Assembly (NCBI GenBank): GCA_041389225.1
Contig: JAWKSI010000001.1
Location: 51,821 to 115,820, forward strand
Reading direction: 5' to 3'
DNA from: Candidatus Doudnabacteria bacterium
GTDB lineage: Bacteria > Patescibacteriota > Doudnabacteria > UBA920
DNA length: 64,000 bases
In this document: positions 11,871 to 33,103 of the stretch, in pieces
How the letters are laid out: the number at the start of each line of letters is the position of its first letter
How positions within the stretch are numbered: position 1 is the first letter of the stretch
The notes under the pieces: generated by a model
The model's database searches: none
Told to the model about the DNA's origin: nothing
Seen by the model: only the letters and a program-made list of their open reading frames with translations
Translations under genes and position numbers: made by a program

Positions 11871-11961
11871 GGAGAGTTGGCTGAGTGGTCGAAAGCGCCT
11901 CACTGCTAACGAGGTAGGGGTTTATAGCCTCTCAAGGGTTCGAATCCCTTACTCTCCGCCA
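11871..11961 (+). tRNA. tRNA-Ser(GCT)
   Basis: GGAGAGT acceptor stem, D-arm GCTGAGTGGTCGAAAGC, anticodon loop cTGCTAa, long variable arm, T-arm GGGTTCGAATCCC, 3' end ACTCTCCGCCA. Confidence 0.85.
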
Positions 11962-12010
11962 CTAAAATTTTTATCGTGCAGACCTACACACTATCGATTT
12001 TAGGTTAAAT

Positions 12011-12040
12011 AAAACCGCCGTAAGGCGGTTTTATTTATTC
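12011..12040. terminator. bidirectional terminator (aaaaccgcc gtaa ggcggtttt)
   Basis: Hairpin flanked by A-runs and T-runs, between the tRNA and the vapC 3' end. Confidence 0.55.
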
Positions 12041-12510
12041 TATTTTAATTTTATATCTTTAGGTTTCAGTAAATTTATCCCTGGAACTATTTCGAAGTCG
12101 TCTTTACCATCCCTTGAGAGTATACTTTTAACATTATTATTTTTCATAATCACACAATGAAAAGCATCTCCCCAGCCAGGATTGTATAAATTCATATTTT
12201 CACCAACATCTGACCAAAAATCATCAAAGGTATAATTGCTGTTTTTATGTGTATCTAGGATAAAAAACTTAACATTATAGATCTTTGATGATCTTTGAAG
12301 CCTATTAATATCTGAAGCAACTTTTTTGGGCTTTATATTAAATTGATTTATTAATACTTTTGCCAGCTCAACAAAAGTAAATAATGAGGTTACAAACCTA
12401 ACACTCTCCATCCCACTTAGCACCTCAACAGCATTTTCTATTTCAGAGCTAAATTCATCTTTCATATACCATGAAACAAATATATTTGTATCTAAATATA
12501 TATCTTTCAT
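12040..12510 (-). CDS. vapC: PIN-domain protein (VapC-like toxin)
   Basis: The N-terminus MKDIYLDTNIFVSWY is typical of PIN domains (D..N, acidic residues). 156 aa. Confidence 0.7.
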   Translation of the reverse strand: MKDIYLDTNIFVSWYMKDEFSSEIENAVEVLSGMESVRFVTSLFTFVELAKVLINQFNIKPKKVASDINRLQRSSKIYNVKFFILDTHKNSNYTFDDFWSDVGENMNLYNPGWGDAFHCVIMKNNNVKSILSRDGKDDFEIVPGINLLKPKDIKLK

Positions 12511-12511
12511 T

Positions 12512-12667
12512 TTATTTCTTAGCTTTGAATTTTACTGGAACTTCAACCTTTACAGCTTTTTTAGCTTTAAATGAAACACTCTCACCATTTTTAGTTTTAA
12601 AACTAACAGTTACCGGCTTTTGGACTGTCTTGGTAGCCTTAAATTCAACAATTTTTTTGCGTGTCAT
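12512..12667 (-). CDS. unannotated 51-aa lysine-rich ORF (MTRKKIVEFKATKTVQKPVTVSFKTKNGESVSFKAKKAVKVEVPVKFKAKK), a candidate antitoxin partner of VapC
   Basis: Minus-strand translation from the ATG at 12667. Its stop overlaps the vapC start. It falls below the 60-aa cut-off of the ORF track. Confidence 0.4.
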   Translation of the reverse strand: MTRKKIVEFKATKTVQKPVTVSFKTKNGESVSFKAKKAVKVEVPVKFKAKK

Positions 12668-12676
12668 AATTCGATT

Positions 12677-13949
12677 CTACACCAATTTAAGAATCTTGTC
12701 TTCATACTTAATTTTAGATTTTAAATTAGACAATAATAATCTTTTCTCACTAATAGAGCCTTCTTTCAGCAAATATTTTGCATAATTTTTTATGTCAGCG
12801 TCTTTATTATTAGAGACACTCTTAATACCCAAGACACTGGATTGAAATTTATTAAACCTGCTTACTTCGAGCTCTAGCCTTTTCTTAATCCCCAGTTCAT
12901 CAATATCCGTATAATCAATAATTTTAGCTAACTGATCAATCAGCTCTTTTTCTCTAATATACTTGTTTTTACAAAACCTATCTTTAGCTCTAGTGCAGGA
13001 ATAATAAATGTATTTGTTTGACCCACCGTTTTTTAGCTCTTTCCATTTTTCTTCTGCTGATATTCCTGAGCCACACTTACCGCATATAAACATTTTAGTA
13101 AATGCGAATTCTTTAGATTGTCTAGAAATATTATTTCTCTTAAGTTGTTCCTGAACTTTATCAAATAACTCCTTGGTTATAATTGGCTTGTGTCTTCCTT
13201 GATAAACATTGCCGCTATTTCTTGGATATTCAAATTCTCCGTAATAAAAGGTGCTTTGAAGTATTTTGTAAACCGCCGAAAGTGTTACAGGTCTATTACC
13301 TCTTGTATAGAAGTTAAGCTCGAATCTTAACCAGTGATATAACTTTCTACCTGACCATTTTTCGTGAGCCACTTTTTCGAACATTTGTTTTATAACTAAG
13401 GCTCTCTGAGGATCCTGAATAACCACACCCTTTCTATCTGTGCGCTTTTGGTTTAGATAGCCCAAAGGTGCCATATTTGGCCAAAAACCAAGCTCTACGC
13501 GCGTCCTCAACCCTCTTTTAACATTTATACCACGATTGTCATTTTCTAGCTTAGCTTGAGACCCCAATATCATCAGCAAAAACTTTTCATTTGGATTATT
13601 AGAAAACTCTTGGCCGTATGTTCTAATTTTTTGCAATTGCCCTCCATCCATTAAATCGACAATAGATCCCAAGTCTCCAGCATTACGAGATAACCTATCA
13701 GGCGCCCAGGTGAGTATGCCGTTAAATTCTACCCTCTTTAATTTCGCTTAAGAGCTCATTAAAGACTGGTCTTTGATTAGTTTCTTTAGCAGAATGTGAT
13801 TCTTGTTTAATTGTCACAATCTCAAGCCGATCACGCTCTGCTATTTGTAGCATCTCTTTTATCTGTGAATCTATAGACATTACCTGCTTCTCGTCGCCCT
13901 CGGAGCTACCCCTTGCGTATAGACAATATCTTATCTTTATTTCTTCCAT
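12677..13949 (-). CDS. large serine recombinase: resolvase catalytic domain plus recombinase and zinc-ribbon domains, interrupted by one frameshift at about 13722-13730
   Basis: The N-terminal 75-aa ORF (YARGSS..Q) reads on in another frame as ...GILTWAPDRLSRNAGDLGSIVDLMDGGQ.... Removing one T from the attt run at the junction restores ...EGRINGILTW.... The C-terminus has Cys-rich CGKCGSG..YYSC. Confidence 0.8.
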
Positions 13950-14020
13950 ACCACATTAATGACGCACCTGCCTTTTTTAGTCTAGGTAGATAATTTAAAA
14001 ATCAGCCATTTGGCTGATTT

Positions 14021-14722
14021 TTAAGAATACTTATATTCGAGTTTCTCTTTGACTTTTTTCCAATTTGGTAGCTTCTTGTCTAAACAAGCAAAAAATAACT
14101 TATTATGCTTTCTATATTTAATATGGCATAGCTCATGGATTAAAACATAATCTATACAATCTTTAGATGCGTGAATAAGTTTTGGATTTAATGATACTTT
14201 TTTACCCTTAAGGAAACTTCCCCACCTCTTCGACATATTTCTTAGTTCTAACACCAAATCATTATTTTTCGGAAATAGCTTTTTCATCTTCTCAAACCTA
14301 TCCTCAAATACAACAACTGTTTTTTCTTTATACCACCGATCAATTAATATTTTTGTATACGAACTGTTCTTAACTGATTTACTTGTTCTCACCTCAAAGA
14401 CCCCTCTAAAGAGGCATATCGAATCAGCTTTAGCACTTTTAACTACTAATTTATATTGCCTACCTAAATATAATAAACTTTCCCCAGAAACATACTCACG
14501 TTTATATTCTTTTTTATTCACTCGATCAAAAAAGTCGAGCTGTTTATTCATCCAAAACCATTTTCGTTTTAAAAACTGTTCAACTTTATACAGGTCAATA
14601 TCCAAGGGACCTTTGACCACTATTTCTTTGCTCGGTTTAATCGTTAAAGATAAACTTTTGCGTTTTTGTTTTATTAATTGATATTGGTATTGGTAATTTC
14701 CGTATACAAATTTTTTGATCAT
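14021..14722 (-). CDS. WLM/DUF45 (YgjP-like) zinc metallopeptidase, a known companion of type I R-M operons
   Basis: HEXXH motif in DYVLIHELCHIKYRKHN. Lies immediately downstream of hsdR. Confidence 0.7.
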   Translation of the reverse strand: MIKKFVYGNYQYQYQLIKQKRKSLSLTIKPSKEIVVKGPLDIDLYKVEQFLKRKWFWMNKQLDFFDRVNKKEYKREYVSGESLLYLGRQYKLVVKSAKADSICLFRGVFEVRTSKSVKNSSYTKILIDRWYKEKTVVVFEDRFEKMKKLFPKNNDLVLELRNMSKRWGSFLKGKKVSLNPKLIHASKDCIDYVLIHELCHIKYRKHNKLFFACLDKKLPNWKKVKEKLEYKYS

Positions 14723-17700
14723 TAGATTATCTTATGGTTATTCTCTGCCAACTGCACGGCTTTTTCAATCACTTCTTTACTAGCTTCTGGGCTTAAATCC
14801 AAATCATATTCAACCCTTGCCACATCATACAAATAGTCGTCAATTTTATTCATCATCTTTCTTTTTACATCTAAATTTTTATGCCAATCCACTATACTTT
14901 CTTGTTTGATTATACCTATGATATCTAATATTACCGAGGTATAATTTTCGCCGTCTAAAGGTATTAAGTTCTGTAAATTTCTATACAGAATGTCAGCACC
15001 TTTAACAGCAGTTACTTTTTCTGGCAAGCCTTCATCTCTTTTATTTACCACTTGGTCTTCAATCAACCTTAATTGTTTTAAGGCTTCGATGTCTGCCAGT
15101 TTCTTTAATCTCATTTGATCTAAAATCTCTTGGATTTTTTGAAAAGCGATCATAAAATTCTGGATCAGACTCAACATTTTCTCTAATTGTCTTATCTGTC
15201 TGGGCCGCGATCGCTTCTGCTTTAGATTTGTCGGAACCTAGATTTTCTACTTCTTCTTGAAATGCATCTCGGTCGGTAATGTTAACTTGCTTAGTCAAAA
15301 GTTCTACCCCTTTTGCATCAACGTATTTATCCAGCACATCAATTAAAGACTGTTTGTATTCTCCTAAATCTACAGAATCACCATAAACCAAACTTGAAGC
15401 TTTTCTTAATTCCATAAATTTCTTTAGCTCTCTTTTATATAAATCAATGTGTTTAAATTCTTTTACAAAGTTTTGTAAGACGAGACATTCATTAAACTCA
15501 CGAATAAACTTATTCATAGTTTTATAAAATACATCTCTTTGCTGTTCATCCTCTAAATGTCTAATAAAAACCTCGTCATCTTTAGAACCCTTAACTTCTT
15601 TAAAAATATCGTGAAGTTCACCATATGAATGTTCCAGCGATTCTATTTTGTCATCTACATCAATTAAAGCACTCTTAACATCATCTTCATCATAATTACC
15701 AAATAGTTTCATTGCGGTATCAATATTCTTAGCATTTTCCGAATAGTCGACTATAAAACCAGCAGTTTTTGGCAAGACTTCATTTTCAAATAATCTATTG
15801 ACCCGAGCAATAGCTTGCAGTAAATTATGATCTCTTAAGTCTTTGGATAAATACAAAACTGTATTTCGTGGAGCATCAAATCCAGTAAGAAGCTTATCTA
15901 CCACTATAATAATCTCCACCCCATCTTCATTATTTTTAAAACTACTAATCACACCGTCTTCATAAGATTTTACACTAGAGTGATTAGCCCTAACTTCGCC
16001 CAAATAATCCACTACAGTCTTTTTATGGGTATTAACTTTATCTCCATCCTCATGTTCATCAGAAATCACTACAGCTGTATTGATCTTCCCACTAATTGCA
16101 AAAGCTCGCTGGAACAACACCGCAGAAAACTTTGATGGTGCTACAACCTGTGCCTTTAATCCAGTACCTTTAAAATTATCCAAAAAGTGTTTTTCTATAT
16201 CAAAAGCTATCTCTGCAATTCTCTGGGGATTGTCTTTAATAATTTTACTTCCTACATATTGCTGAATCTCTTGCTTTTGTTTGTCCGACATTCCAGCGGT
16301 AATCCGCTCGATATGTTTGTCGATCATGTCTTTATTCTGCACTAAATCGACATATCGACCCTCATAAATTAAAGGTAAAATAACTTTATCATCTAAGGCA
16401 TCATCAATTGTATACCTATCAATGTAGCTACCAAATTTTCTCCAACTTTCAGCTTCTTTTTTCATTAATGGAGTGCCTGTAAAGGCAATATAACAAGCGT
16501 TAGGAATTATCCGATTCATTTCCAAATTGGCAATCCCGGTTTGACTGCGGTGTGCTTCATCAATTAATACAAAAATATTTGAATCATTATCAACCAAGCC
16601 AGTTCGCTTTTTACTGGCTGATTCAAACTTATGCACCAAAGTAGTAATTACGTCCAAACTCTTATCTTTTATTAATCCTAATAAATGCTCGCCACTAGTG
16701 GCCTGGGTTACACCCTTTTTAAGATTACAGTTTTTAAAAGTATCTTTAATTTGTTTGTCTAAATCTTTACGATCTGTAACTACAATCACTCTTGGGTTGG
16801 TAATATTCGGATCTTCTATTAACGCTTTCACAAACATGACCATTGTTAAAGATTTACCTGACCCTTGAGTATGCCAAATTAACCCACCTTTTCTCTTACC
16901 TTCGCCATTAGCACCTTCTTCGTATTCATTAATTCGATTAAATATTTTACGGATTGCAAAATACTGTTGGTACCTGGAGATCTTTTTTATCCCAGCGTCA
17001 AAAACTATATAGTTTTTAGTTAAATCTAAAAGCCTGTCTGGTTTAAATAAAAACACCACACCTTTATCTTGTTCTGTTACCAATCTACTTGTATGTTGTG
17101 TAGTTTGTTCAGGAGATCCATTTAAATCTTTAACCAACTGATTATATACTTTTGGTTCAATTTGCCTTTGCATTACAGACAAAACCTCAGATTCTACTTC
17201 TTCTACACTTAAGCCTTTTTCCTTCCATGCGCTATAAAACTTATTAGGTGTTCCCGTGGTACCATATCTTAAGTCCTTACCATTAGTGCCAACTAATAGT
17301 TGAGCATATGTAAATAACTTAGGGCAATAATCTGCTCCCTGGTTGCGATTTTGTTGCGAGAAAGCCTTGTCTACATCTACGCTAGATTTTTTGTTTTCTA
17401 TTACTGCGAAGGGTATTCCGTTTACAAAACAAACAATGTCTGGGCGAATCTTTTGCTTTCCTTGGGCTTCAAATTCTACAGATACATGGTAGTCATTATT
17501 ATCTGGATTTTTAAAATCTATAAATCTAAAATTCTTAGAAACCTTTTTACCATCGTGATGCACGACTATTGTTTTCCCACCAGCCGTCGGCATAATAGTG
17601 TTAAACACTTCTTGTGAACTATCTATTAAGCCTTTGTATTCTAAATTCTCTAATTCATCAATTGCATCCCTAACATCCTTTTCTCCAAACTTATAGTTTT

Positions 17701-17896
17701 TACCATCTACTTCGTAACTATTAAGCTCCATTAGTTTTTTAGATGCAATATCGTGCAGCAAAAAAGTGCTTGAGTCATTTCCACGCAGCTGCATTATTTC
17801 TTCTCGAGAAATATATTTATATCCAAGATTAATCAATAACTCTACAAAAGGTAATTGTGATTGCCTGGCTTCATCAAAATGTACTTGTTCTAACAT
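14722..17896 (-). CDS. hsdR: Type I restriction enzyme R subunit HsdR, roughly 1060 aa if one frameshift at the A6 run (about 15160-15166) is corrected
   Basis: N-terminal HsdR nuclease region, SF2 helicase motifs (HTQGSGKSLT, FVLIDEAHRSQ) and a C-terminal domain carried by the 151-aa ORF. Reading A6 as A5 gives the continuous ...DPEFYDRFSKIQEILDQMRLKK.... Confidence 0.9.
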
Positions 17897-17998
17897 AATT
17901 TAGTAATTTAATTCCTATAAATAAGTGGGTTTTTATATTTGACATAAACATGATTTATGCTATAATACCTACATCAATACGAAAAGGGATCCGAACGG

Positions 17999-18544
17999 TT
18001 AATTACCTAAGGAGCCCTTTTCTTTTTGCATGATTTTACTTTTAATACTAGGATTTTCTAGTTGATCAAAATATTCTGCGCCAATTTTTTTATATAAAGA
18101 GGAAGCGTATTTTTTATTTGGAAATAATACCTTTAAAAACCTATTTTCGGATATCAAAAAATCAACGAGCATTTTATAGTCGCCATCGCCAGACACTAAG
18201 ACAACTTTATCAAAGTCATCTTTTTTATACATCTTTTTCATAATAGAAAAAATAATATCACAATCCACATTTCCTTTTTTATTTCCCAGCATTGCAGAAT
18301 TATGTTCTCTAAAGACTAAAACAAAACCGGCTTCTTGTATATCTGTATATAAATCTTGATAGTCTTCGTTAAGCCACCCTAAAAAATAATATGCAGTTTT
18401 AACCTTATATTTATTTGCCAAGTATACCCGAAATTTCTCCAAGTCTACTTTCCAAGGACTTATTTCATGCTTAGTGGTGCCCATAAATAAATTTTGCCCA
18501 TCAATATAGGCTAAATTATTTGGTTGTGATTGATAGTCATTCAT
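17999..18544 (-). CDS. NYN (LabA-like, PIN-superfamily) nuclease-domain protein
   Basis: AYIDGQNLF...DCDIIFSIM...VVLVSGDGDYKMLVDFL matches the NYN pattern (IDG.NL...D......VLVSGD.DF). Lies between hsdS and hsdR. Confidence 0.7.
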   Translation of the reverse strand: MNDYQSQPNNLAYIDGQNLFMGTTKHEISPWKVDLEKFRVYLANKYKVKTAYYFLGWLNEDYQDLYTDIQEAGFVLVFREHNSAMLGNKKGNVDCDIIFSIMKKMYKKDDFDKVVLVSGDGDYKMLVDFLISENRFLKVLFPNKKYASSLYKKIGAEYFDQLENPSIKSKIMQKEKGSLGN

Positions 18545-18552
18545 ATAAGATA

Positions 18553-19731
18553 CTACTTTACTTTTTCTAATAAGTCTTCTGGGGTTCTAATCTTCCCAGT
18601 AACTAAATTGTTTAATAAATATTTTTTCTGTTCTTGCCAGAGGGTAAGTTTTTTCTGGAGAGCGGCGATCTCATCATCAGCAGAGGTGAGAATATCAGCG
18701 ATTGCTTTTTGTTCCCTTAGTTCTGGAACACTATATTTAATAGACAGAAGTTCTGACTTATTCAACTTTGCTCTTGTTCCTCCGTTCAAATACATCAAAA
18801 CATTTTTATGCACCGTTGAATAAAAAAGGAAATCTTGAGAATTTTTTTCATTCGCTTTAATAACATGCGCATGATTGTTAACCCATGATTTCCCATATAC
18901 ACGATAAGCGATTGGTCGATTTTGATATTCATCAAATTGACCTCCATCTTCTGCAACCAGAATAATATCTTCATCAAAAAGATAATCATTTACATAATCA
19001 ACGATATTATTTGCACCGCAGTATGGAATAATGCCTTGCATTCTCGATCTTTCGTCAGAGTTTAATGGAACTCTCTTTGCGTCTAAACAAATAGCAATAT
19101 CTTTAAGTTTTACCTCTTTCCACTCGTCACTAAACCCAGGTAAACGTTTTTTGCCTGTGAGGAGTTGTTGCATCAAACCCTTTTTGATATTTTTCTTTAA
19201 AGCAATTTTCTTTTTAAGTTTTTCAATAGCCTCATCCCATGTTTCGAGAACAGTAGCGATACGGTTTTGTTCAAGGAGAGGGGGAAATTTCATGGGGCAA
19301 GAAAGTATGTCATCTTTTCGTAAGTTTGTTTGATTTACCCCATCATCAAAAGAAAGGAAGTAGCGATTTCTGCTTAGAGCAAGATATAAGAACTTCCTTG
19401 ATACCCCCTTTGCCCTAAATCCTCCAATTCTTTGATTTAGAGTATAAGTATTGTCTTTATTGACATAAAAACACTTTGCTATAGCTTTCCCATTTGGGAC
19501 ATCACTCATTACCATTGCAATGTCTCCTTTTTTTAAAGGGACCAAAAACTTATTTGAGTATTTTTTTATTTTTCCATTAGATGAAATAAATTTTGAATTC
19601 ACAACTACATAATTTCCGTTTTCATCAATATCTTTTTCATGCCCTTTTCCATTGAAAAAGTCTACTACTTCTCTGAGTTGTTTTTTTACCCACCCATTAG
19701 GAATATTTTGTTGTTTATTTCTGGTCTTCAT
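18553..19731 (-). CDS. hsdS: Type I restriction-modification specificity subunit HsdS (two target-recognition domains)
   Basis: 392 aa. The central and C-terminal conserved coiled regions (LLEQNRIATVLE.., LREQKAIADILTSADDEI) are typical of HsdS. Confidence 0.8.
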   Translation of the reverse strand: MKTRNKQQNIPNGWVKKQLREVVDFFNGKGHEKDIDENGNYVVVNSKFISSNGKIKKYSNKFLVPLKKGDIAMVMSDVPNGKAIAKCFYVNKDNTYTLNQRIGGFRAKGVSRKFLYLALSRNRYFLSFDDGVNQTNLRKDDILSCPMKFPPLLEQNRIATVLETWDEAIEKLKKKIALKKNIKKGLMQQLLTGKKRLPGFSDEWKEVKLKDIAICLDAKRVPLNSDERSRMQGIIPYCGANNIVDYVNDYLFDEDIILVAEDGGQFDEYQNRPIAYRVYGKSWVNNHAHVIKANEKNSQDFLFYSTVHKNVLMYLNGGTRAKLNKSELLSIKYSVPELREQKAIADILTSADDEIAALQKKLTLWQEQKKYLLNNLVTGKIRTPEDLLEKVK

Positions 19732-20208
19732 TTAATTTCTTTTTGATTGAATTCCTTGTTCAACCACAGCTTCTATATTTCTCGCAATCCAGTTATATGC
19801 ATCAGACCCTGCGTCATACACAGAAATATATTCTGATAAATTTTTGCCATTCTTTAAGCCGATTTTTATAAACGGGTTAATGCCCTTGGAACATGTTCCT
19901 GTTCGTGGGTCCCTGAGATTATGAATGTATATTCCGACCAATCCTTTTTTACTATTCCATGCTTTTTCTATTTCATACTTTACCCACTTGCTTTTATGAG
20001 TCTCCGCTCCAATCAAAACAACAACACAAGAAGATTTTTCTATGTTTTCGTCAATCCACCGACGTATCGCCGCATCTCCACCTCTTTTAATTTCTTCCCA
20101 TCTATTTGGGGTGACGGGTTTATTAGCTTCAATAACACCTATGTTTCTAATTTGTTGTACTCTCATTACATCATTACGAAAATGAAAGCTGTAAAATATA
20201 TTCCTCAT
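19732..20208 (-). CDS. ThsB-like TIR-domain protein (DUF1863 / MTH538 TIR-like family), 158 aa
   Basis: NIFYSFHFRNDVMRVQQIRN...NRWEEIKRGGDAAIRRWIDENIEKSSCVVVLIGAETHKSKWVKYEIEKA...GLVGIYIHNLRD...SKGINPF aligns motif-by-motif with Thoeris ThsB-type proteins (VFFSFHY.D...RV..VRN, VLIG..T..R.WV.YEI.K, IGIHI...KD, KG.NPF). The gene is wedged between hsdM and hsdS, and its stop abuts the hsdS start. Confidence 0.75.
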   Translation of the reverse strand: MRNIFYSFHFRNDVMRVQQIRNIGVIEANKPVTPNRWEEIKRGGDAAIRRWIDENIEKSSCVVVLIGAETHKSKWVKYEIEKAWNSKKGLVGIYIHNLRDPRTGTCSKGINPFIKIGLKNGKNLSEYISVYDAGSDAYNWIARNIEAVVEQGIQSKRN

Positions 20209-20214
20209 AATTAA

Positions 20215-20612
20215 AATATACTAATTAATATTACTAATAAAATAGTGGGTATATAAAATAACTTTAAGGTATTGGACCACATGCAATACAAAATAGCAGT
20301 GTCACGCAATGAATTAAATTTAGAAACAGACATTGAATAATCTATAAGTGCTTCATCTTTGATATTTCTAACTTCATCATATAAATGCCTGTATTTGCGC
20401 TCTAAAGATAAAAATAAGCATCATGAATCCAAAATATCATGATTACCAAAATCAATATAATCTGCAATTCATTTCTACAAATTCTAAAAATGCTGCTGCT
20501 AACGCCACAACTAGTGTTATCATCCATCCTCTCAGGGTGAATAGATTATTTCCCATGCGAGAAATAACCTCTTGAATCATTTGCAAATGTGCAATCTTTT
20601 TGTTATCCGACA
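20215..20612 (-). pseudogene. small membrane protein gene (about 165 aa, two predicted TM segments) broken into three frames
   Basis: Minus-strand ATG at 20612 gives MSDNKKIAHLQMIQEVISRMGNNLFTLRGWMITLVVALAAAFLEFVEM. The reading continues in the other two frames as NELQIILILVIMIFWIHDAYFYL and ERKYRHLYDEVRNIKDEALIDYSMSVSKFNSLRDTAILYCMWSNTLKLFYIPTILLVILISIF. It lies directly upstream of the TIR gene. Confidence 0.4.
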
Positions 20613-20626
20613 TATTAATTTTTGAC

Positions 20627-22129
20627 TATTTAATACTCATAGCCTTTAAGTATTTTTTCATCTGTTCTTCAAGCTCTTTCAATTCTGGCTCAAGCTTCGA
20701 CAACTCCTGTAGTTTTGCTCCAATATCTACTGGTCTTCTTCAAGATATCGACATATCTTGTAATATTTAGATTAAAATCATTTTCTTTAATCTCTTTAAA
20801 CTTAACCACACGAGCAAACTTCTCGACATCTTTACGATCTTTGTAGCTTTTAAAGATTTTATCTATGTTTTCTTCGGTTAAAGTATTTTGAGCTTTCCCA
20901 GATTTATACTCTTTAGACGCCTCGATAAACATGACATCTTTTTTGCTCTCATTCTCTGCCCCTGCCTCACGAGATCTGTCTATCACCAAAATAGCTACAG
21001 GAATACCGGTAGTAGAGAATAGTCCTGCAGGCAGGCCAATAACAGCATCAATCAAGTTTTCTTCTAGTAACTGCTTTCTAATTTTCCCTTCAGCGCCACC
21101 TCTAAATAACACACCATGAGGCACTATAATAGCTCCACGACCTGTTTTAGGTTTTAAGGTTTCTACCATATGGCTGATAAAAGCATAGTCACCTTTGTCT
21201 TTAGGTGGCACTCCACGGTGAAAACGGTTAAATGGATCACCTTCGGCATTTTCGGCTCCCCATTTTTTTAGACTAAAAGGAGGATTAGCTACTGCAACAT
21301 CAAATTTAATTAATTTACCATTTTCTACTAGCAGTGGATTATTTAAAGTATCACCCCACTCAAGTCGGGCAGAGTCTTTGCCATGCAAGAACATGTTCAT
21401 ACGAGCTAGCTGGTAAGTAGAACCCGTGGATTCTTGTCCATATAAAGCGTAATCGTTTGACCCTTGAGATTCTACTTCTTCTCCTGCTAACAAAAGTAAA
21501 CCACCTGAGCCAACAGCGAAATCACAAATACGATCTCCAGGTTTTGGTTGAGCAAGTTTGGCCACCAATTTTGCAACATTCCTAACAGTAAAAAATTCTC
21601 CTGCCTTTTTTCCTGCGTCTGCACCAAATCGCTCGATCATATACATATAAGATTCGCCGAGAACATCCTCACCAACTTCAGACAAATCAATCTTATTAAA
21701 ATCCTGCATCAAGTGCCTGATCATTTTATTACGTTGATCAAGCTTGCCTAAGATTGACTCATTATTAAAGTCTACAGAAAAAATTCCTTCGAGCTTATCA
21801 CGATTCTCTTCTTCTATTTTATGAAGAGCTTTATTAATCTCTTCACCAATATTGTCAGATTCTATCTTTTCGTATAAAGCATCAAATGTAGCTTCTTCTG
21901 GAATATAAAAACGATCGAGTTTCATCTTTTCTTCGACACGCTTCTTATCACCCTGGTAACGCTCTACATACTCAGCCCTTTTTATTTTAGAAATGTCACT
22001 GACATATTTAAAGAAAAGCATTACTAATACATAATCTTTATACACTCCAGCATCAACAGATGTCCTAGAAGAATCCGCTGCCTGCCAAAGCACTTTATTT
22101 AATTCTGGTTGTGTTATTTTTTTAGACAT
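20627..22129 (-). CDS. hsdM: Type I R-M N6-adenine DNA methyltransferase HsdM. The annotated stop at 20690 is probably a 1-nt indel, and the reading continues to 20627 as ...ELEPELKELEEQMKKYLKAMSIK.
   Basis: N-terminal HsdM domain and NPPF motif (VAVANPPFSLKKW). A typical coiled C-terminus is recovered after a 1-nt correction near 20695. Confidence 0.9.
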
Positions 22130-22709
22130 TATTTTGTAGTTTAAGAAAAATGGTCTTTAGTATATCGCGTTTTAGCTGCTTTTGTTTGTCGTGGAGGTTT
22201 ATCTGCTTAATAACATTATTATACAAATCAACTATAGTTTTTTGTTGTTCTAGACTAGGTAATAAGATAGAAGTTTCACCTAAGACAGATTTAGATATGT
22301 GCATAATAGTACTTCCTCTGGCTTTTTGCATTATTTCTGATTGAAAAGCAGGTGAGTTTAAGTAAAAATTTAAGTACTCAGGATTAACCTTTTTGTCTTT
22401 GATTCTAATAATATACAAAGAGGAGTTTGCCATTGATTTTTGTTCGCTTTGAACCAGGGAAGATCTAAATTCTTTCCCGGGAGTACTGCGGGACAACATT
22501 AGAATATCATTCTGGTGTATCACTGCTGGAGACCTGGCTGGTAAACTTTCTAGCTTAGGTAAATTACTCAGCTCCGATATCTTGGTATTGCTTACAATGT
22601 CAGATGCTTGCACCACTGGATATTGGCCGTTTTCAGAGTAGTCCTTAATATAGATTGCTGCCCCAGATATAATATCGACAAGATCTTTTAACATAATATT
22701 TGAACTCAT
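22122..22709 (-). CDS. hsdS: half-size HsdS (single target-recognition domain), overlapping the hsdM start
   Basis: 195 aa. It has a TRD-like region and the conserved C-terminal helix (LEQQKTIVDLYNNVIKQINLHDKQKQLKRDIL). Confidence 0.6.
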   Translation of the reverse strand: MSSNIMLKDLVDIISGAAIYIKDYSENGQYPVVQASDIVSNTKISELSNLPKLESLPARSPAVIHQNDILMLSRSTPGKEFRSSLVQSEQKSMANSSLYIIRIKDKKVNPEYLNFYLNSPAFQSEIMQKARGSTIMHISKSVLGETSILLPSLEQQKTIVDLYNNVIKQINLHDKQKQLKRDILKTIFLKLQNNV

Positions 22710-22739
22710 ACAGACATTATACTAAGTTATAATTTTCTG

Positions 22740-23153
22740 TCAAATATTTTGATTATTTTTCTTAATCCCTGCAGCTTTAGCAATAATATCTGCCAAAGTA
22801 TGGGCTTCTTTTAGGTTTTCTGGGATTTCTTGTTCTTTTGAATAGACAATTCTAATGGTCTTATCACTACTATCTTTACTCGAGTAATGTTTATTATTAT
22901 GCTTTAATGCAAATTTTATTAAATCGCTCTTCCCTTCCTGTATCCCTTGTATCAGAGCATTTTCTGCAATATCCCCAATATTTTCTTTACCCTCTTTAAT
23001 TGCTTTATTAGTTTGAGCGGTAAACCGTTTACTAGATTTCCTTAATCTGTAATAGCTTGCCTTGCTGAATCCAGTCTTTTTACAGGAATACAAAACATTG
23101 CCAGTTTTTTCTAGCTCAGTTAAGAATCTTTGTTTTTGATCTTTAGAAATCAT
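22740..23153 (-). CDS. hypothetical protein with an N-terminal HTH (KKTGFSKASYYRLRK)
   Basis: ORF with an HTH-like motif. Its stop overlaps the start of the upstream methyltransferase. Confidence 0.4.
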   Translation of the reverse strand: MISKDQKQRFLTELEKTGNVLYSCKKTGFSKASYYRLRKSSKRFTAQTNKAIKEGKENIGDIAENALIQGIQEGKSDLIKFALKHNNKHYSSKDSSDKTIRIVYSKEQEIPENLKEAHTLADIIAKAAGIKKNNQNI

Positions 23154-23905
23154 TTTGTAAGAGATTGGTATCTATCGATAATTACTTGGCAGTAATTTAA
23201 GTCTATTTCAAAAGCAATACATTTCCTGCGTGTTTGCTCGCATGCAAGTAAAGTTGACCCAGAACCTGCAAACAAATCCAGTACTGTATCACCTATATTA
23301 CTACTATTTAAAATCATCTCTCTTAAAAGCGGTAGGGGCTTCATCGTTGGATGAAGTTTGCTTTTCTGCGGTTTTGGATAAAACAAAGCTGATTTACTTT
23401 TGGATTTATAAAATTTATGCCTGCCGTGCCAGCCGTAATAGATGAGTTAGTGCTGTGGTAAATAATCGAGTCGTCCTATCACTGGCTTATTTTTTACCCA
23501 GACAAGCATTTGCCCAAGTTTAATCTGTACTTTATCGCAAGCTTTCTTTAATGCAAAAATTAACTTATCTGAATTAAAAATATATATTGAATTATGTTCT
23601 GCAAAATATGGCGCAATGTTTTGCAGCCACCCAACAGAAAACTCCTTATAACTCTCTTCTGACTGCACTTCATCTCCAATTATTTCTGTATCATTACTTA
23701 ATTCTGCAAACTTGTATTTACTTTTTGTATAATCTACGCCGTAAGGCGGATCGGTGAGTAATAAATTAATTTTCTTTCCTGTTAATGCCTGATCCACCAA
23801 GTCTTTATCACGGCTATCACCGCAAACAAGAATATGACTACCAAGTTCGACTATACTGCCGTACTTAATTAAGTTTTTTGGCTTTTTGTCCTGTAAGTTC
23901 TTCAT
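23150..23905 (-). pseudogene. ParB-associated N6/N4 DNA methyltransferase (second copy) interrupted by an in-frame TAA at 23447-23449
   Basis: LLLTDPPYGV motif in the N-terminal part. HPTMKPLPLL and FAGSGST motifs in the C-terminal part. The two ORFs are in the same frame: ...DYLPQH*LIYYGWHGRHKFY.... Confidence 0.7.
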
Positions 23906-25129
23906 ATCTATTGATAATTAATTGTGTAAAGATAGGTGATTGCTCAATTACAAAAGCCTTTCGCTTTAATTGCTCGCAAGCAAGAAGCTCACTACCACTG
24001 CCTCCGAAACCGATAAAAATATTGTCTCCGGGTTTACTACGCCTCAGTAGTGGTCGTTCAAATAAAGACACGGGCTTCTGGGTTGGGTGCTCATAACTGC
24101 CCTGCGATTCTTTCGTCAACCAAATATCAATCATATCTTCAATGTTAGAAATGGTAGCATTACCAGTTCCAACATTGGATTTAATATCTCGTGGAAGTTT
24201 TTATGTTTATCAGATAAATATGGCTTCCCAAGAGTTCCATAAATTACTGGCTCATAGCACTTATTAAATCCAGATTTTGGAGTACAGTTGATCCCATTTT
24301 TGATCCAGACGCAAGTCCGCTTATAACTAATGCCTAGATTTTTATATATTGTTTGAACCAATCCTACGTTCCGCTGATCATTCCATATAAATATGTGAAC
24401 GTCGGGTTTTGTAATTTTAAGGCTAGTAGATATAGCTTTAGTTAAGAACTTCTCGTACTCATCACTCGACAAGTTATCGTTAAAATGTCCTCCATACTGA
24501 GATTTCCCAGATATTCCTTTATCATAATCCATGCAGATTCCATATGGCGGGTCACTAAGAATCATATCCATCTTTTCTCCGTTAGTTACTTTTAAAACAT
24601 CTGTTTCTTCAGTGCTGTCGCCGCAAAGTAGATAGTGATTTCCAAGTTTGAATAAATCCCCAGTTTTTATCTTTGTGTGTTTTGCCTGCTCTTCTTGCTG
24701 GGGCTTAATATCTAAATCTTCAAGAGAAATTTGGTTATCCCAAATATCACTTAACTCATTTTGACCAAACCCTATATCGAGCAACAAGTCTAAATCAAAT
24801 TCCTTCAAAAGCTCGTTGTTCCATGACCCAGTATTCTGGTTACTTCTAAGCAAATATTCTTCAAGCTCTGTTTTGTTCAGAAGACGACTTGGTACACGAA
24901 CTTCTATTTCTTCATCTGTTCTGCCAAGTAGCTTTAATATTTTGAGCCTTTGATGACCACTAATTACTGTGCCATCAAGATTAATAGCAATAAGCTCTAC
25001 ATAGTTAAACCGTTTAAAACTTTCAGTTAAGTGCTCTTTTTGAGTTTCGGACAAAGTCCTTGGATTTTTGTCGTAAGGAATTAAATCCTTAACTAGTCTT
25101 TTTTGCGTAGACCAAACTAAATTTTTCAT
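23865..25129 (-). CDS. ParB-like nuclease domain fused to an N6/N4 DNA methyltransferase, split by a frameshift at an A5 run (about 24196-24200)
   Basis: N-terminal ParB-like region (LIPYDKNPRTLSE), MTase motifs ILSDPPYGI, EHPTQKPV and FIGFGGSGS. Reading A5 as A6 gives the continuous ...DKHKKLPRDIKSNVGTGNATISNIEDMIDIWL.... Confidence 0.75.
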
Positions 25130-26109
25130 AGTATTGCTTTTTAATTGTCTAGTATAATTTCAGCAGACATATTAGCGTTACCTCAAAAGGAGTTTAGAAA
25201 ATAAAAAACTGCTTTTTTAAAAGCAGCTTTGTTTGTTATCCACTCCGAATAATTACAGCTCCGGAGTTTTATTTAAATTTAAAGTTATACGAACTATTTA
25301 TTCTATAACCAAGACCGGGTTGAGATTCAACTAAATTAATAGTAGTATCTAATTCTCTACGCACCTTTTTATTAATATTGCTATACCTTTTCTAAAGGCC
25401 TTCGCTTGAAGCATACGATCCAGGTGCTACTATTAATTGTTCTGAAGTTCTATATTTTATATCTTCAGATAAAGCTTTCAAAGCCATTACGCCCTTATTA
25501 GTTAAATTTATTTGCTTATCATTACCTAAATGTAGTGTCCTTGACCGTATATCTAAGAAAATAGATTTTTGATTTATTACACGCCACTATTCTGTTGCTC
25601 AAAAGTTCGATAATTCTTTGATTTTGTTTTGTATTTATAATCTATGCTTCTTGTCTACTAGATTCGTTTAAGCGTGTAGTAATATTTTTTAAAGGTTTAA
25701 CAATATGACTAAAATCGGTAATTCGTCTTAAACTCTGAGAAAGCTCATTAATTGAATTTAAAAACGGCAAGTTAAAATCAGATTTTCTCACCTCGCTCTA
25801 TTCGTTTACTTATAGATTTTTATTTTCAAGCTTTACTTTCATACTATAATTATACCGTAAAATTAAACTTAAAATCATGGAAATTAGCCAAAAAACCATA
25901 GATAGACTTCATAAATATTTCTTAAAAACCTATGGGGTGGATATGACAGAAGAAGAAACGAGAGAATCAGCTGAAAGTCTAATAGGGGCTTTTTCTCTAC
26001 TAATAGAGATGGATCAAAAGGAAAACCAAAAGCAACAAATGAATAGTAATCAAAATAACAAATAACTGTTATAATGATATAAAATTACTTAATTTTATTA
26101 AAAAATCCT

Positions 26110-26729
26110 ATGAAAAATGAAATAGAAGCAACTTTTCTATCGGTAGACAAAGATGATATGAGAGAAAAGTTTAAAGTAACGGCTATACCCTAAAAACTCC
26201 AGAGTATATGATGCGACGAAAGACTTTTGATTTCTCCAAAGTCTCCCCTGGTAAAAATAAATGGGGTCGAGTTAGAACAGAATCGGATAAAACTACAATG
26301 ACAATTAAAGAAATTACTGGTGACGGTGTAAATGATACCTATGAAGTAGAATTAGTGGTTAACGATTTTGATACTGCCACAGAATTCTTTGAAGCATGTA
26401 ACATTCACCCTAAATCTTTTCAAGAAAATATGAGAGAAGTCTGGGTTAAAGATAATATCGAAGCTACCATAGATATGGCCAGGTCTAAATCCTTTTGTTG
26501 AATTTAGAGACCATAGATGAATCAGCTCAAAACAGCAAGTAAAGAACTTGAGTTTAATTATGATGAGGCTCTATTTGGTAGTATTGATTTAGTATATGAA
26601 AAAGAACTGGAATTCCAGCTGCGGAAATTATCAAACTCCCAGAAATTACATTCGACAAAGTCCCTCAAAAATAAAAAAACGAGCCGTGGAAATAAATTCC
26701 GCGGCTCTTTAGTTTGTAATTTGAATTAA
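26110..26729 (+). pseudogene. CYTH-like (class IV adenylate cyclase / triphosphate tunnel family) gene fragmented into about 3 pieces
   Basis: The N-terminus MKNEIEATFLSVDKDDMREKFKV carries the CYTH EIE..F signature. It continues in the 26208..26501 ORF after a stop/frameshift, and possibly in 26517..26729. Confidence 0.4.
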
Positions 26730-26757
26730 AGTGTCCTTAATTGGTGGGTATTTATAC

Positions 26758-27705
26758 TCACCAGGCTCTTCCATGCACCATCCCTCCACATTTGTCCAGA
26801 GCCCTGCAATTGAAATTGCAGAATGGTGTCACCGTTAACCGAAGAGAGGTCTTAGATAAAAGCCTTTTGACCTCAATTTCTCCGATTTGACCCTGCAAAG
26901 CAGTCTTTAAACTGTCAGGTTTGCCGAAATGAGTTGGAAGGAAGAAACCAATATCCCTTCTTAAATAACAGAAGTATAAATTTAAGTATGGGTCAACCCT
27001 AGCGTAATCACCAAAACCCTCCTCACAAACTTCTGTATACTGACAAGTCGAGCAAGGATGGTTTGAGCGATCCAGTTTGTCACCAAGCTTTACCTCGACT
27101 AAGCCCCCGCCCAGTAAATGGAACCTTAACCTTTTTCTTCCCAATTGCTTTCTTACCCTTTCAATCTCTATCGTTCTTGGCAAGACCATATTTTTAACAA
27201 CTGGTCGCCAATCTTGATAATGAGGTTTTATGGGTTTGGTCACTTTCAGGGGTCCATAACAAAGTGAACAGTTTAAGGCGACACTTATACTCTTCCAAAA
27301 GATAACTGTTCTGGAATGTCAGAAGTATAACCTTTTAGCAAAACTCGGTTAAAATCAATTTTAATACCCAGATTCAGGGCTTTTTTTACCCCAGATATAA
27401 ATTGATCGTAGTCTCCATGACCACCAGAAATCTCTTTGAAGACTATTGGATTAGTCGAATGCCAACTAGTCCGTATAAAGGACAAGCCTGCGACGGAAAG
27501 CTGTTTTCAAATCCGCCTAACAATTGTCCGTTAGTAGTCATTGAAACTTTAAACCCTTTATCAACCAAACAGTGAACAACATCATTGATTCGATACTTGC
27601 CATCCCTCCACAATAGCGGTTCAAGAGCACCGATTTCCAAGTTTCGATTCCCCCTATACTAATCCACTCATCAGCGATACTCAAGATGTTACCAAATGAC
27701 AGTGG
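26758..27705 (-). pseudogene. radical-SAM-like enzyme remnants (at least 3 frame-broken pieces). The canonical CxxxCxxC region is missing.
   Basis: Motif EPLLWRDGKYRINDVVHCLVDKGFKVSMTTNGQLL. Cys-rich C-terminal fragment (CSTCQYTEVCEEGFG..., FCNFNCRALDKCGG). Confidence 0.45.
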
Positions 27706-27707
27706 TT

Positions 27708-28270
27708 TCATGATCCCCCTCCTACTTTTGAAATATAACCCAGAATCTTCTCTAGCGTTTGTTCTTTTGAATCACTACTGGTATCCAAAGTGATCAAGTC
27801 CATGTCCAAAAACTTTTGAACCTCGTCAAGAAAACCACTGTTGTTTTCAAGCTTCACATCACTTTTCTTTTCCAATCTATTTCTAATCCGAGCATCCCGC
27901 ACACCGGAATCACAGGTTAACAAAAATGAATAGTCGGGTTTTATAATGTTCGACTCATCGTGAATTAATTTTATCCTGCGATCCAGTACTAAATGGTATG
28001 CCATTGTAGAAGATATGTACCTATCAGAAACAACAGAATTTCTTTTCAGAAATTTCTGAATCTGAGAACTATCATGGTCAATAGCTAACCTGTAAAAGCA
28101 ATACCTCTGAATAGGAGTGGCTGTGTTTTCAACTTCTTGCGAAACTGAGCAAAACTATCAGAAGGTGATTTGTAGCATATATAACCACATCTCTCAGCCA
28201 ACAATTCAGTTATTGTAGTTTTACCTACACCATCGACTCCGTCTATAGAAATAAACAAGTTCTTTTTCCA
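27708..28270 (-). pseudogene. thymidylate (dNMP) kinase-like gene split in two (P-loop N-terminus and lid/C-terminus)
   Basis: ISIDGVDGVGKTT P-loop in 28085..28345. The C-terminal fragment 27708..28004 reads ...DYSFLLTCDSGVRDARIRNR.... Confidence 0.5.
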
Positions 28271-28283
28271 CAATACACCTCCG

Positions 28284-28772
28284 CTACTGAACAGAAACAA
28301 CGTAGTATTCCTTGCTATTGTTTCTGATATTAATCTCCACCTCATCTCTCTTTTTGCCGATTAAAGCATTTGAAATTGGGGAACCGAGAGAAACTACTCT
28401 TATGACTTTATCCTCAAACTTAAATTCTTGACCACCGCCAGTTGGAAGCAAGAAGTATCTAACTATTTGATTAGTCCCATACTCTTCTAACTCGACAATA
28501 GCGTAAATTGATCCATGTTGGATAGATTTCGGGTGGTCAACTTTTAAAGTCTTTAACCTTGCTAGCTTCTCCCTCAAATCTACTAAAGTTCTTTCTTGAC
28601 CGCCTGCTAAATATTGAGCCTCTTCTTTAAAAGTATCGTAACGAGAGACCATTGCTCCTTTATGGAACTTTGATTCATCTTCTGCTGCTTTTTTAGAAGT
28701 TTCTGATATTTTAATATCAGCCTCAACAATAGCGATAATTTTGTCTACTATTTCTTTCTTTAATTCTTCCAT
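28284..28772 (-). CDS. GreA/GreB-family (Rnk-like) transcription elongation factor homologue
   Basis: N-terminal coiled coil. The C-terminal FKBP-like domain reads YFLLPTGGGQEF...IRVVSLGSPISNALIGKKRDEVEI. Confidence 0.55.
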   Translation of the reverse strand: MEELKKEIVDKIIAIVEADIKISETSKKAAEDESKFHKGAMVSRYDTFKEEAQYLAGGQERTLVDLREKLARLKTLKVDHPKSIQHGSIYAIVELEEYGTNQIVRYFLLPTGGGQEFKFEDKVIRVVSLGSPISNALIGKKRDEVEINIRNNSKEYYVVSVQ

Positions 28773-29035
28773 ATAACCTCCAAGTATTTTTTAAAATTCA
28801 ACTAAATTATTATAATTTAGCTAATAACTATAGTATAAAAATCAGTTTTAGTCAAACGAAAAACCATGTGTAGCTGTGTCTCATTTGTCTCATTTTGTTG
28901 ATTAAAATCGCGACCCGAACTCCTCAAATTTGATATACTTAAAATATCTATAAAAGCCTTACTGGGCTTGCTCTCTGCCGGTACTTAACCAGAGTGGCCC
29001 GCCACGGATCTGTTTGCCACTTGTGGTAAATAGAA

Positions 29036-29147
29036 CCATGGTAATGATAAGGTCTTCTCTATCCTGACCATTTTTATCCGCCGACTCTAAGAGGCGGAAT
29101 ATATAGCGGAAATGTCGGAGCTTTAGCTTCGGCCTTACTCTCCACCA
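29036..29147 (+). mobile_element. right-end (attR-like) arm of the tRNA-Ser(GCT) island, ending in a degenerate copy of the tRNA 3' end (ccttactctccacca)
   Basis: cttactctcc is identical to the 3' end of the tRNA-Ser(GCT) at 11947-11956. The preceding roughly 100 nt is about 70% identical to 31701..31796. Confidence 0.55.
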
Positions 29148-29160
29148 CCTCGTGCTAGCA

Positions 29161-29206
29161 CGAGACACCATAAAAACACCCACACGGGTGTTTTTATGGT
29201 GTCTCG
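29161..29206. repeat. perfect 21-bp inverted repeat (cgagacaccataaaaacaccc / gggtgtttttatggtgtctcg) with a 4-nt loop. A shorter palindrome ctcgtgctagcacgag precedes it.
   Basis: Read directly from the sequence. It lies immediately outside the attR-like core. Confidence 0.7.
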
Positions 29207-31358: not shown

Positions 31359-31446
<88 letters not shown>

Positions 31447-31843
31447 CAAACTTGACTGCCATTTATGGTAGTTAAGTTTGTGGTAGAAATGAAGGGTGAG
31501 AAATAGAGTGGTTCTACTTTTGCATAGTATTTGCAAAAGTAGAAACCAAAAGGTCTGGGAGACCTTTTGGTAACGGCGGGTCGCCGCAGCGTATCTCGAC
31601 GAGCTACAATGAGCGTAAGCGAATGTAGCGAGGAGAGTAGCGGAAGGTGACCGAATCCCTCCACTTCCGCCATGGATTTGGTCATCGCAGATGATCAAAT
31701 CCATGGTAATGGTGGAGCATTCTCTATCCTGACTCATCTTTGTCCGTTGACGTTAGGAGGCGGAATACATATGGAAATGCCGGAACGAAGTTACGGCCTC
31801 CACTTCCGCCACAAACTTGACTGCCATTTATGGTAGTTAAGTT
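31447..31843 (+). mobile_element. tandem integration scars. Two further copies of the tRNA-Ser(TGA) 3' end (31652-31672 and 31797-31811, both ...cctccacttccgcca) are present. A 32-nt downstream flank (caaacttgactgccatttatggtagttaagtt) is duplicated at 31447 and 31812. The region also contains an arm element (31701-31796) homologous to 29036-29132.
   Basis: Direct repeats read from the sequence. Perfect 11-bp hairpins at 31514-31542 and 31546-31570. A 17-bp hairpin at 31670-31706. Confidence 0.6.
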
Positions 31844-31950: not shown

Positions 31951-33103
31951 ATGAAAACTGAACAACGGCACTGGACCCAAAACCGTGGTTGGCAAAACCT
32001 CGGCTCCAGTCAACTAACCAAAGACCAAGCTCCTCAATTAGTATTGGTCTTTGGTGGTCGCAAAGTTTTGGAAGACCCAGCTCATTATCAAGAAATCAAA
32101 GACTTCTACCCAGAAGCTAATATTCTTATGTGCTCAACCGCTGGCGAAATCATAGATACAATGGTCTATGATGACTCACTCGCGCTCACAGCAATTCACT
32201 TTGAAAAAACTACTTTGCAAATTGCCAAAGCGGTAATCACCGATCAATCTGAAAGCGAAAGCAAGGGTCAAGAATTAGCCAACCAACTACCTAAAGATGG
32301 TTTGGTGCATGCGCTAATCTTCACTGACGGACTCAAAGTAAATGGAACCGCTTTAGTCAAAGGTTTAACTGATAATTTGCCAAAAGAAATTACAGTCACC
32401 GGTGGGATGGTTGGCGATGGAGCAAACTTCGAAAAAACTCTCATTGGTTTTAACCAAGAACCAGCAGAAGGTCAACTTATACTAATTGGTCTGTACGGGA
32501 GTGAACTTAGAGTTGGTCATGGGTCAATGGGAGGCTGGGATCCTTTTGGGCCAGAACGAACAATTACCAAATCTGAACACAATGTTTTGTACGAACTAGA
32601 CGGACAACCAGCTCTCGAACTTTACAAAAAGTATCTCGGCGACGAAGCCGCGGGACTTCCTAGCACTGGCCTACTCTTCCCTCTTAGTCTTAAAATCAAT
32701 ACCGATCAAGGTGAAGTAGAAGTTGTGAGAACCTTACTTTCAGTCGACGAAACCAACCAAAGCATGACCTTTGCCGGAGATATGCCAGAAGGAACTTCGG
32801 CAAAACTTATGAAAGCAACTTTGAACGTCTCATGATGGCGCTCAAGGCGCAGCCAAAATGAGTCTCGATAGCTCTAAATTAGAAGGTACAGAACTCGCTC
32901 TTTTGATTAGTTGTGTCGGCCGCAAGCTTGTCCTCAAAGAAAAAATCGAAGAAGAAGTCGAAGCAGTTCAATCTGCACTCGGTGGCCAAGCGGCGATCAC
33001 TGGTTTTTATTCATACGGTGAAATCTCACCAGTAACTGCTCTCAACCAACAGTGCCAACTCCACAACCAAACCATGACCGTTACTATTTTCAAAGAAGTA
33101 TAG
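31951..33103 (+). CDS. FIST-domain sensor protein (FIST_N plus FIST_C), split by an apparent 1-nt indel near 32830
   Basis: Two adjacent ORFs in different frames. The C-terminal part has ALLISCVGRKLVL...GFYSYGEISP (FIST_C). The second frame is open upstream (..SHDGAQGAAKMSLD..). Confidence 0.65.

Follow-up and report, generated by a model that had tools for sequence, protein, structure and literature searches.

A gene-less module of about 125 nt stands twice in the window, that is, in the whole 64-kb stretch of Candidatus Doudnabacteria (CPR) DNA that was analysed, at 29005-29132 and 31673-31796, each time between copies of a tRNA-Ser 3' end, and it is an insertion separate from the 17-kb island that borders its first copy. 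We give about an even chance to the reading that it is a mini integrative element, or the scar left by an integration, at tRNA-Ser 3' ends; most likely it is an integrative element in miniature or the remnant of one, a rather ordinary thing. The main value of our analysis is a corrected map, on which the repeated module forms an older and separate layer at the same hot spot as the island.

Sequence and anatomy of the module

The window carries two tRNA genes, tRNA-Ser(GCT) and tRNA-Ser(TGA), whose 3' ends are about 90% identical (28/31 nt) and which, without the island, would stand about 2.3 kb apart. The features of the two loci are the following.

11871-11961, plus strand: tRNA-Ser(GCT), CCA encoded, target of the large-serine-recombinase (LSR) island with the crossover CC at 11956-11957 (ARAGORN, Rfam, att alignment)
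28999-29004, plus strand: CCGCCA, in which the attR crossover CC of the LSR island (28999-29000) is followed by the displaced GCCA end of the tRNA; pre-island host-side DNA lies rightwards
29002-29041, plus strand: hairpin H0 of module 1, a 19-bp stem that begins within the CCA
29047-29054, plus strand: variable patch of module 1, with TAAGG at 29048-29052
29055-29132, plus strand: right part of module 1, with the invariant 14-mer TTCTCTATCCTGAC (29055-29068), hairpin A (29077-29098) and hairpin B (29114-29133)
29133-29147, plus strand: direct repeat of the tRNA-Ser(GCT) 3' end
31359-31446, plus strand: tRNA-Ser(TGA) (ARAGORN, Rfam)
31447-31651, plus strand: extra unit between tRNA-Ser(TGA) and module 2, made of a 32-nt copy of hairpin F (31447-31478) and 173 nt of hairpin-rich sequence X
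31640-31672, plus strand: putative internally deleted tRNA-Ser, GCGGAAGGTGAC fused to CGAATCCCTCCACTTCCGCCA, of which 31658-31672 is the left direct repeat of module 2
31670-31706, plus strand: hairpin H0 of module 2, a 17-bp stem
31712-31719, plus strand: variable patch of module 2, with GTGGAG at 31712-31717
31720-31796, plus strand: right part of module 2, with the 14-mer (31720-31733), hairpin A (31743-31764) and hairpin B (31779-31797)
31797-31843, plus strand: right direct repeat of module 2, CCTCCACTTCCGCCA (31797-31811), and second copy of hairpin F (31812-31843)

The original prediction had placed two copies of a segment, about 70% identical, at 29036-29132 and 31701-31796; both are present at these coordinates, with 74 of the 98 aligned columns identical (76%, z=13 against shuffles), and the similarity reaches about 35 nt further left, through the long hairpin H0 (17-19 bp), to the CCGCCA tRNA-type end. 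Between the flanking repeats the copies are colinear throughout (128 versus 124 nt, 69% identity, z=12.7), and an nhmmer profile built on the pair has no hit in the 64 kb other than these copies (E 1e-50 and 2e-49). A simple recent local duplication, which had been named as a way of explaining the pair away, does not account for copies that are about 71-76% identical and have different flanks. At both loci a CCA immediately precedes the module and the repeat closes it. If the island is taken out, the order at locus 1 is tRNA-Ser(GCT), module (128 nt), 15-nt tRNA-end repeat, terminator and sigma-factor gene, and that at locus 2 is tRNA-Ser(TGA), F (32 nt), X (173 nt), the deleted-tRNA-like stretch, module (124 nt), 15-nt repeat and F; hairpins stand past the downstream repeat at locus 1 (29161-29206) as well as at locus 2 (F).

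The direct repeats of the tRNA-Ser 3' end that bracket the modules match at 14/15 positions at locus 1 and at 15/15 at locus 2. Each copy had been said to run into the 3' end of its own tRNA-Ser, and for copy 1 this is what we find, the sequence CCTTACTCTCCACCA agreeing at 14/15 positions with 11947-11961 of tRNA-Ser(GCT). The tail of copy 2, CCTCCACTTCCGCCA, fits the tRNA-Ser(TGA) of the window at just 12/15 positions; it is identical (15/15) to 31658-31672 upstream of module 2 and 1 nt off the tRNA-Ser 3' end of related Doudnabacteria. The 32 nt past this tail are identical to the 32 nt past tRNA-Ser(TGA). The stretch at 31640-31672, which also reads as GGAAGGTGAC joined with CGAATCCCTCCACTTCCGCCA, is apparently a tRNA-Ser whose middle has been deleted. 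The duplication of the tRNA-Ser 3' end around the module has the signature of site-specific integration. Both copies are linked to tRNA integration sites, and at locus 2 there is no element with genes, none lying between its repeats.

Could the pair be an immobile scar, the remnant of one old integration at one tRNA-Ser that later spread a single time, by ectopic recombination or gene conversion, to the tRNA-Ser next to it? We regard this as possible but unlikely. The close identity of the tRNA 3' ends over 31 nt, the adjacency of the two loci once the island is removed, the occurrence of just two copies in the window, both at tRNA-Ser sites, and the further rearrangement of locus 2, with its duplicated F hairpin and apparently deleted tRNA, are all in line with such a history. 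However, the repeats of copy 2 fit neither tRNA of the window but a third tRNA-Ser type, that of the relatives, and an origin outside the two loci is thereby indicated; in addition, 15 nt of downstream homology is short for recombination, and a divergence of 25-30% between copies that lie beside near-perfect repeats is unlike decay in place.

The hairpin that follows tRNA-Ser(TGA) grows into a 32-nt inverted repeat (31431-31496, 78% complementary), the far arm of which is a degenerate inverted copy of the tRNA-Ser(TGA) 3' end; this extension is missing where hairpin F occurs for the second time (31812-31843). A 9-codon ORF occupies the same place in both modules (MVMIRSSLS at 29038-29067 and MVMVEHSLS at 31703-31732); no ribosome-binding site was found upstream of it, and it is probably meaningless. 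A coding role of the module was rejected, since this short frame (MVM[IV][RE][SH]SLS) is all that it offers and 1-nt indels between the copies break longer frames. No recombinase gene lies inside the roughly 125 nt of the module.

The serine-recombinase island beside module 1

From 12 to 29 kb the genes are on the minus strand, and the G+C content is down to about 0.33 from about 0.40. This 17-kb stretch, 11958-28998, is an LSR defence island, defined by the following features.

11958-11982, plus strand: attL-side P' half-site, GCCACT-N14-GCAGA, forming a dyad with 28974-28998 (14/25); homologous P' half-sites occur in the CPR loci L003, L010, L030 and L008
12677-13949, minus strand: LSR gene (Resolvase, Recombinase and Zn-ribbon), split by one frameshift
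28874-28998, plus strand: conserved non-coding right end of the island (nhmmer), with tandem GTCTCATTT (28878-28896) and the P half-site (28974-28998)

An attP of 52 bp, TCTGC-N14-AGTGGC-CC-GCCACT-N14-GCAGA, is rebuilt when the 25 nt that precede the CC at 28999-29000 are joined to the 25 nt that follow the CC at 11956-11957; its 14/25 dyad is equalled by about 6e-4 of the 25-mers of the window. By nhmmer, 28874-29001 matches the ends of islands in L008/L009 (E 2e-9) and in L030/L031 (E 5e-7), and both alignments reach the last bases of the query, GGCCCG, past which the sequence differs locus by locus among L008/L009, L030/L031 and the window. An uninterrupted attP, with the P half joined to the P' half, is found in L008 (2296-2372 of a 59-kb contig) and in the IMG/VR contig L036 (7300-7345 of 28 kb), on the minus strand in both, and in an alignment of attL, attP and attR sites (n=7 sequences) the halves swap around CCGC. 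Because of the attP dyad, the island-end homology and the uninterrupted attP in two contigs, we place the right junction of the island at 28999-29000, to the left of the repeat. Module 1 therefore belongs to the host-side DNA: until the island came in, it was located behind the tRNA, with its hairpin directly after the CCA of tRNA-Ser(GCT).

These borders bear on the original proposal that the segment, as a carrier of arm-type sites for an integrase, is the P arm on the attR side of two related elements, the 17-kb island being one of them. We now hold that proposal to be highly improbable. It is true that the segment borders on a repeat of the tRNA 3' end at its tRNA-distal side and that short repeats lie inside it, GCGGAAT and GCGGAAAT in copy 1 and GCGGAAT and TGGAAAT in copy 2, motifs which, coming from two sequences, are not separable from chance. 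Nevertheless, attR lies left of the segment, the unit itself measures only about 125 nt, no tyrosine integrase was found among the ORFs tested in the island, and the recombinase of the island is an LSR, a family that acts on simple sites of about 50 bp and has no arm-binding sites. The related islands in L030, L008 and L036 are likewise without the segment, the P half in L030 being joined to unrelated host DNA with no module after the same kind of island, and locus 2 has no genes between its repeats. Among the island ORFs and ten other window ORFs that were scanned, no recombinase other than the LSR was found. The ends of the module were also tried as an LSR-type dyad and rejected, with only 3/25 and 4/25 matches.

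In its Resolvase/Recombinase/Zn-ribbon protein, its attP dyad of about 50 bp and its central dinucleotide, the 17-kb island is the same as LSR elements with simple attP and attB sites, and its tRNA-Ser(GCT) target is common to several CPR genomes. The module differs from such elements in that it has no such dyad, lies outside the element and gave only the right half of the island's site. Homologues of the LSR that are about 70-75% identical are very common in CPR bacteria, and those in L003/L004/L006, L010 and L030 adjoin tRNA-Ser(GCT) in the same arrangement; the island, with attL, attR and attP precisely defined, represents a family that hits tRNA-Ser(GCT) across CPR bacteria. Besides the LSR it encodes a PIN toxin, a type I restriction-modification system with a YgjP peptidase, NYN and ThsB-TIR proteins, several DNA methyltransferase fragments, a GreA-like protein and a split thymidylate-kinase-like gene, some of the ORFs tested having no Pfam match, and its homologue in L008 encodes ParB-methyltransferase fusions. 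The non-coding right end is conserved in the islands of L008, L030 and L036. There the tandem 9-nt repeat is fixed in place and varies in sequence (GTCCCATTT twice in L030, the GGCATTTG type in L008 and L036), and it may be the site of a regulator or directionality factor. In L008 and L036 the LSR element is not integrated at a tRNA and may therefore be an extrachromosomal or phage-like form.

Frameshifts split several genes of the window, namely the LSR (12677-13949), methyltransferases (23150-25129), the thymidylate-kinase-like gene (27708-28345) and the host FIST gene (31951-33103), the last of which measures 294 aa versus about 383 aa in homologues. This suggests either indel errors in the assembly or widespread pseudogenes.

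Folding and the copy-specific patch

Paired changes had been reported to preserve two stems, and this is so for stem B, where we count one true double change; in stem A (TCCGCC/GGCGGA versus TCCGTT/GGCGGA) the change is one-sided, from C to U, and gives G-U pairs. Hairpin H0 has 4 double changes, which brings the double changes to 5 of the 38 predicted pairs, in two sequences only. Folding scores are better for the plus strand (z -3.7 and -6.5) than for the minus strand (z -2.7 and -3.9), and the modules contain 7 G-U pairs when read on the plus strand versus 1 on the minus strand. No Rfam match to the module was obtained at the gathering score or at E<=10; a tmRNA, permuted tmRNA or ribozyme was rejected on negative ARAGORN and Rfam results.

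Between CCATGGTAATG and the 14-mer lie 8 nt that diverge more between the copies than any other part of the module, and in each copy this patch complements the copy's own tRNA-derived repeat, TAAGG against CCTTA in copy 1 and GTGGAG against CTCCAC of both flanking repeats in copy 2 (P=0.038 and P=0.007 versus random 8-mers, judged post hoc). In the predicted fold of copy 2 the patch pairing lengthens H0, and the long hairpin that results is imperfect, with an internal loop of 4x4, whereas in copy 1 the extension is just 5 bp, too weak, and missing from the predicted fold. The idea that patch and downstream repeat pair in one helix that closes the module was rejected, because the registers differ by one between the copies and the pairing of copy 1 is not in the predicted fold. 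Three origins are conceivable for the match of patch and repeat: an attachment site that folds, a helix in an RNA, or the growth of a palindrome by templated mutation. If the module were mobile, the match would be a candidate determinant of specificity.

The G-U excess and the stronger folding of the plus strand count against the mini-element reading in so far as they fit an RNA role at least as well. The alternative that the original prediction had offered, a structured sRNA, could take the form of a non-coding RNA that would be co-transcribed from the tRNA-Ser 3' trailer on the plus strand, with three hairpins and a patch that pairs with the tRNA-type tail; it might, for instance, serve the processing of tRNAs or be a decoy that resembles a tRNA. 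Beyond the strand asymmetry, such an RNA would agree with the compensatory changes in five pairs, with the complementarity of the sole hypervariable patch of each copy to its own tRNA-derived repeat, and with the placement of the module between the tRNA end and the hairpins past the downstream repeat. We nonetheless judge it unlikely: the case is built on two sequences, 4 of the 5 compensatory pairs stand in a near-perfect palindrome and would also be kept by DNA-level processes, Rfam offers no match, the module is missing from the orthologous sites of relatives, the registers of patch and repeat are off by one between the copies, and a 17-kb island of opposite strand now separates module 1 from the tRNA promoter.

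Relatives, known systems and the origin of the module

Further copies were sought with a covariance model over 327 kb (the window and the fetched CPR loci), as the original prediction had proposed, and none appeared beyond the two of the window; nhmmer on the fetched loci likewise gave none. Larger collections were scanned with exact patterns of 21-25 nt, which are blind to copies below about 90% identity. These scans returned no module copy in IMG/VR, 2 hits in GTDB, apparently chance and in coding regions, and 10 hits in the JGI metagenomes, of which 0 had a tRNA nearby or a profile match beyond the pattern, the window's own genome being outside the GTDB and JGI collections. Phages and plasmids gave no module match by blastn, and an autonomous element with the att ends of the module was found in none of the window, GTDB, JGI, IMG/VR, phage and plasmid collections, a search of low sensitivity. 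The syntenic relatives L032, L033 and L035, with the order ClpB-ComF-tRNA-Ser(GCT)-sigma-antisigma-tRNA-Ser(TGA), have unrelated sequence directly after both tRNAs (in L032 tRNA-Ser(GCT) is followed by a clear terminator hairpin), and the module is absent from both orthologous tRNA-Ser sites in all three. Since these nearest available relatives are distant, with at most about 46-47% identity in ComF and 63-64% in FIST, its absence there does not date the insertion.

If the module is a mini integrative element, an element whose attachment site contained about the 15 last nt of a tRNA-Ser would have integrated at the tRNA 3' end. The tRNA-proximal end of the element would have brought a new CCA and its own hairpin H0, the terminator-like start of that arm, and its distal end, with the 14-mer and hairpins A and B, would have come to end against the displaced tRNA end as the other, recombinase-binding arm. 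Both copies share their boundaries and a colinear layout, and it therefore seems that the short form itself was copied, which might have happened through a recombinase encoded elsewhere, the module being then a miniature non-autonomous element, or through recombination between nearby, nearly identical tRNA-Ser 3' ends. Later on, the unrelated LSR defence island entered the CC of the CCGCCA end of tRNA-Ser(GCT) and moved module 1 17 kb away from the tRNA. We count against the mini-element reading that no third copy, no autonomous relative and no candidate recombinase besides the LSR was found. A mobile module would be an att-only element of unusually small size, and a module that is just a scar would be an ordinary result of repeated integration at tRNA genes.

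Integration scars and non-autonomous units flanked by att sites are known beside tRNA and tmRNA genes; such units include the CIMEs (cis-mobilizable elements) of Streptococcus ICEs, which, as described to our knowledge, are kilobases long. At the ssrA gene of Dehalococcoides, islands in tandem and units poor in genes have been reported that lie between repeats of the 3' end of this RNA gene and occur with a serine recombinase (PMC3146451). The module resembles both in the far-side direct repeat of an RNA-gene 3' end, in having no recombinase of its own, in its tandem arrangement with a recombinase-bearing island at one tRNA and in a regenerated gene end that is followed by the element's hairpin. 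It differs from CIMEs in its size of about 125 nt and its lack of genes, and in that its repeats are not the sites of the neighbouring island's recombinase and no helper with matching ends is known. The module shares with MITE-like elements a small size, a structured sequence that codes for nothing, and duplication together with a direct repeat at its flank, but it has no terminal inverted repeats, and where they have a short target-site duplication it is flanked by 15 nt from the end of a particular gene.

The same layout, in unrelated sequence, is found at a tRNA-Gln in another CPR contig, L017 (4380-5160, minus strand), where the tRNA is followed by a 21-bp hairpin, about 95 nt, a second hairpin, a 20-nt tRNA-end repeat and a terminator. 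Inserts of this kind, small and flanked by att sites, therefore seem to arise repeatedly as by-products when elements integrate at CPR tRNA genes. This downstream insert of about 140 nt, closing in the 20-nt repeat of the tRNA 3' end, mirrors the layout of the module, and the upstream flank of the same tRNA-Gln is made of 2-3 tandem units of about 130 nt, each opening with the first 16 nt of the tRNA. In related Doudnabacteria, a structured element of about 100-115 nt lies immediately upstream of both tRNA-Ser genes in 1-3 tandem copies (L032 10737-10952 and 13190-13411; L035 7441-7558 and 10598-10713; also L033 and L034). Its non-terminal units close with a copy of the first 20 or so nt of the tRNA, compensatory changes occur in 11 of 19 predicted pairs and it has no Rfam match; the tRNAs of the window are without it. 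Homology of the module or of segment X to this upstream leader was considered and rejected (z<2).

It is tempting to go one step further and to see in the module a working miniature element with a folded attachment site, a DNA or RNA hairpin of tRNA-end copy, H0 and patch that would mimic or pair with the tRNA-gene target, the patch choosing the tRNA-Ser; together with the upstream tRNA-Ser units of the relatives and the tRNA-Gln units, it would then belong to an undescribed CPR class of tRNA-end-duplicating mini-elements. We consider this quite improbable. Folded single-strand attachment sites are known in integrons (attC) and in CTX phage, whose attP(+) is used by XerCD. The tRNA-type end, hairpin and inverted tRNA end of copy 2 are predicted to make up one long imperfect hairpin with a central 4x4 loop, which may be likened to a folded mimic of a duplex target. 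The likeness is limited by copy 1, with its 5-bp extension outside the predicted fold, by the lack of a linked IntI or Xer enzyme and by the target, which is a tRNA end and not attI or dif.

The same two tRNA-Ser genes show other differences between the window and its relatives. About 5.6 kb (13488-19157) lie between tRNA-Ser(TGA) and tRNA-Arg/RecG in L032, with ThsB-TIR, HTH and unknown genes that L035 does not have there, which suggests another island at the tRNA-Ser(TGA) 3' end; no tRNA-end repeat was found at this stretch. The tRNA-Ser(GCT) of the window is of the GGAGAGTTGGCTGAG type, as in other CPR lineages (L003, L010), and stands at a position syntenic with the relatives. Their own tRNA-Ser(GCT) (L032 10940-11033, L035 7546-7638) is very similar to their tRNA-Ser(TGA) in the acceptor, D and T arms, and looks as if it had arisen by duplication and a change of anticodon.
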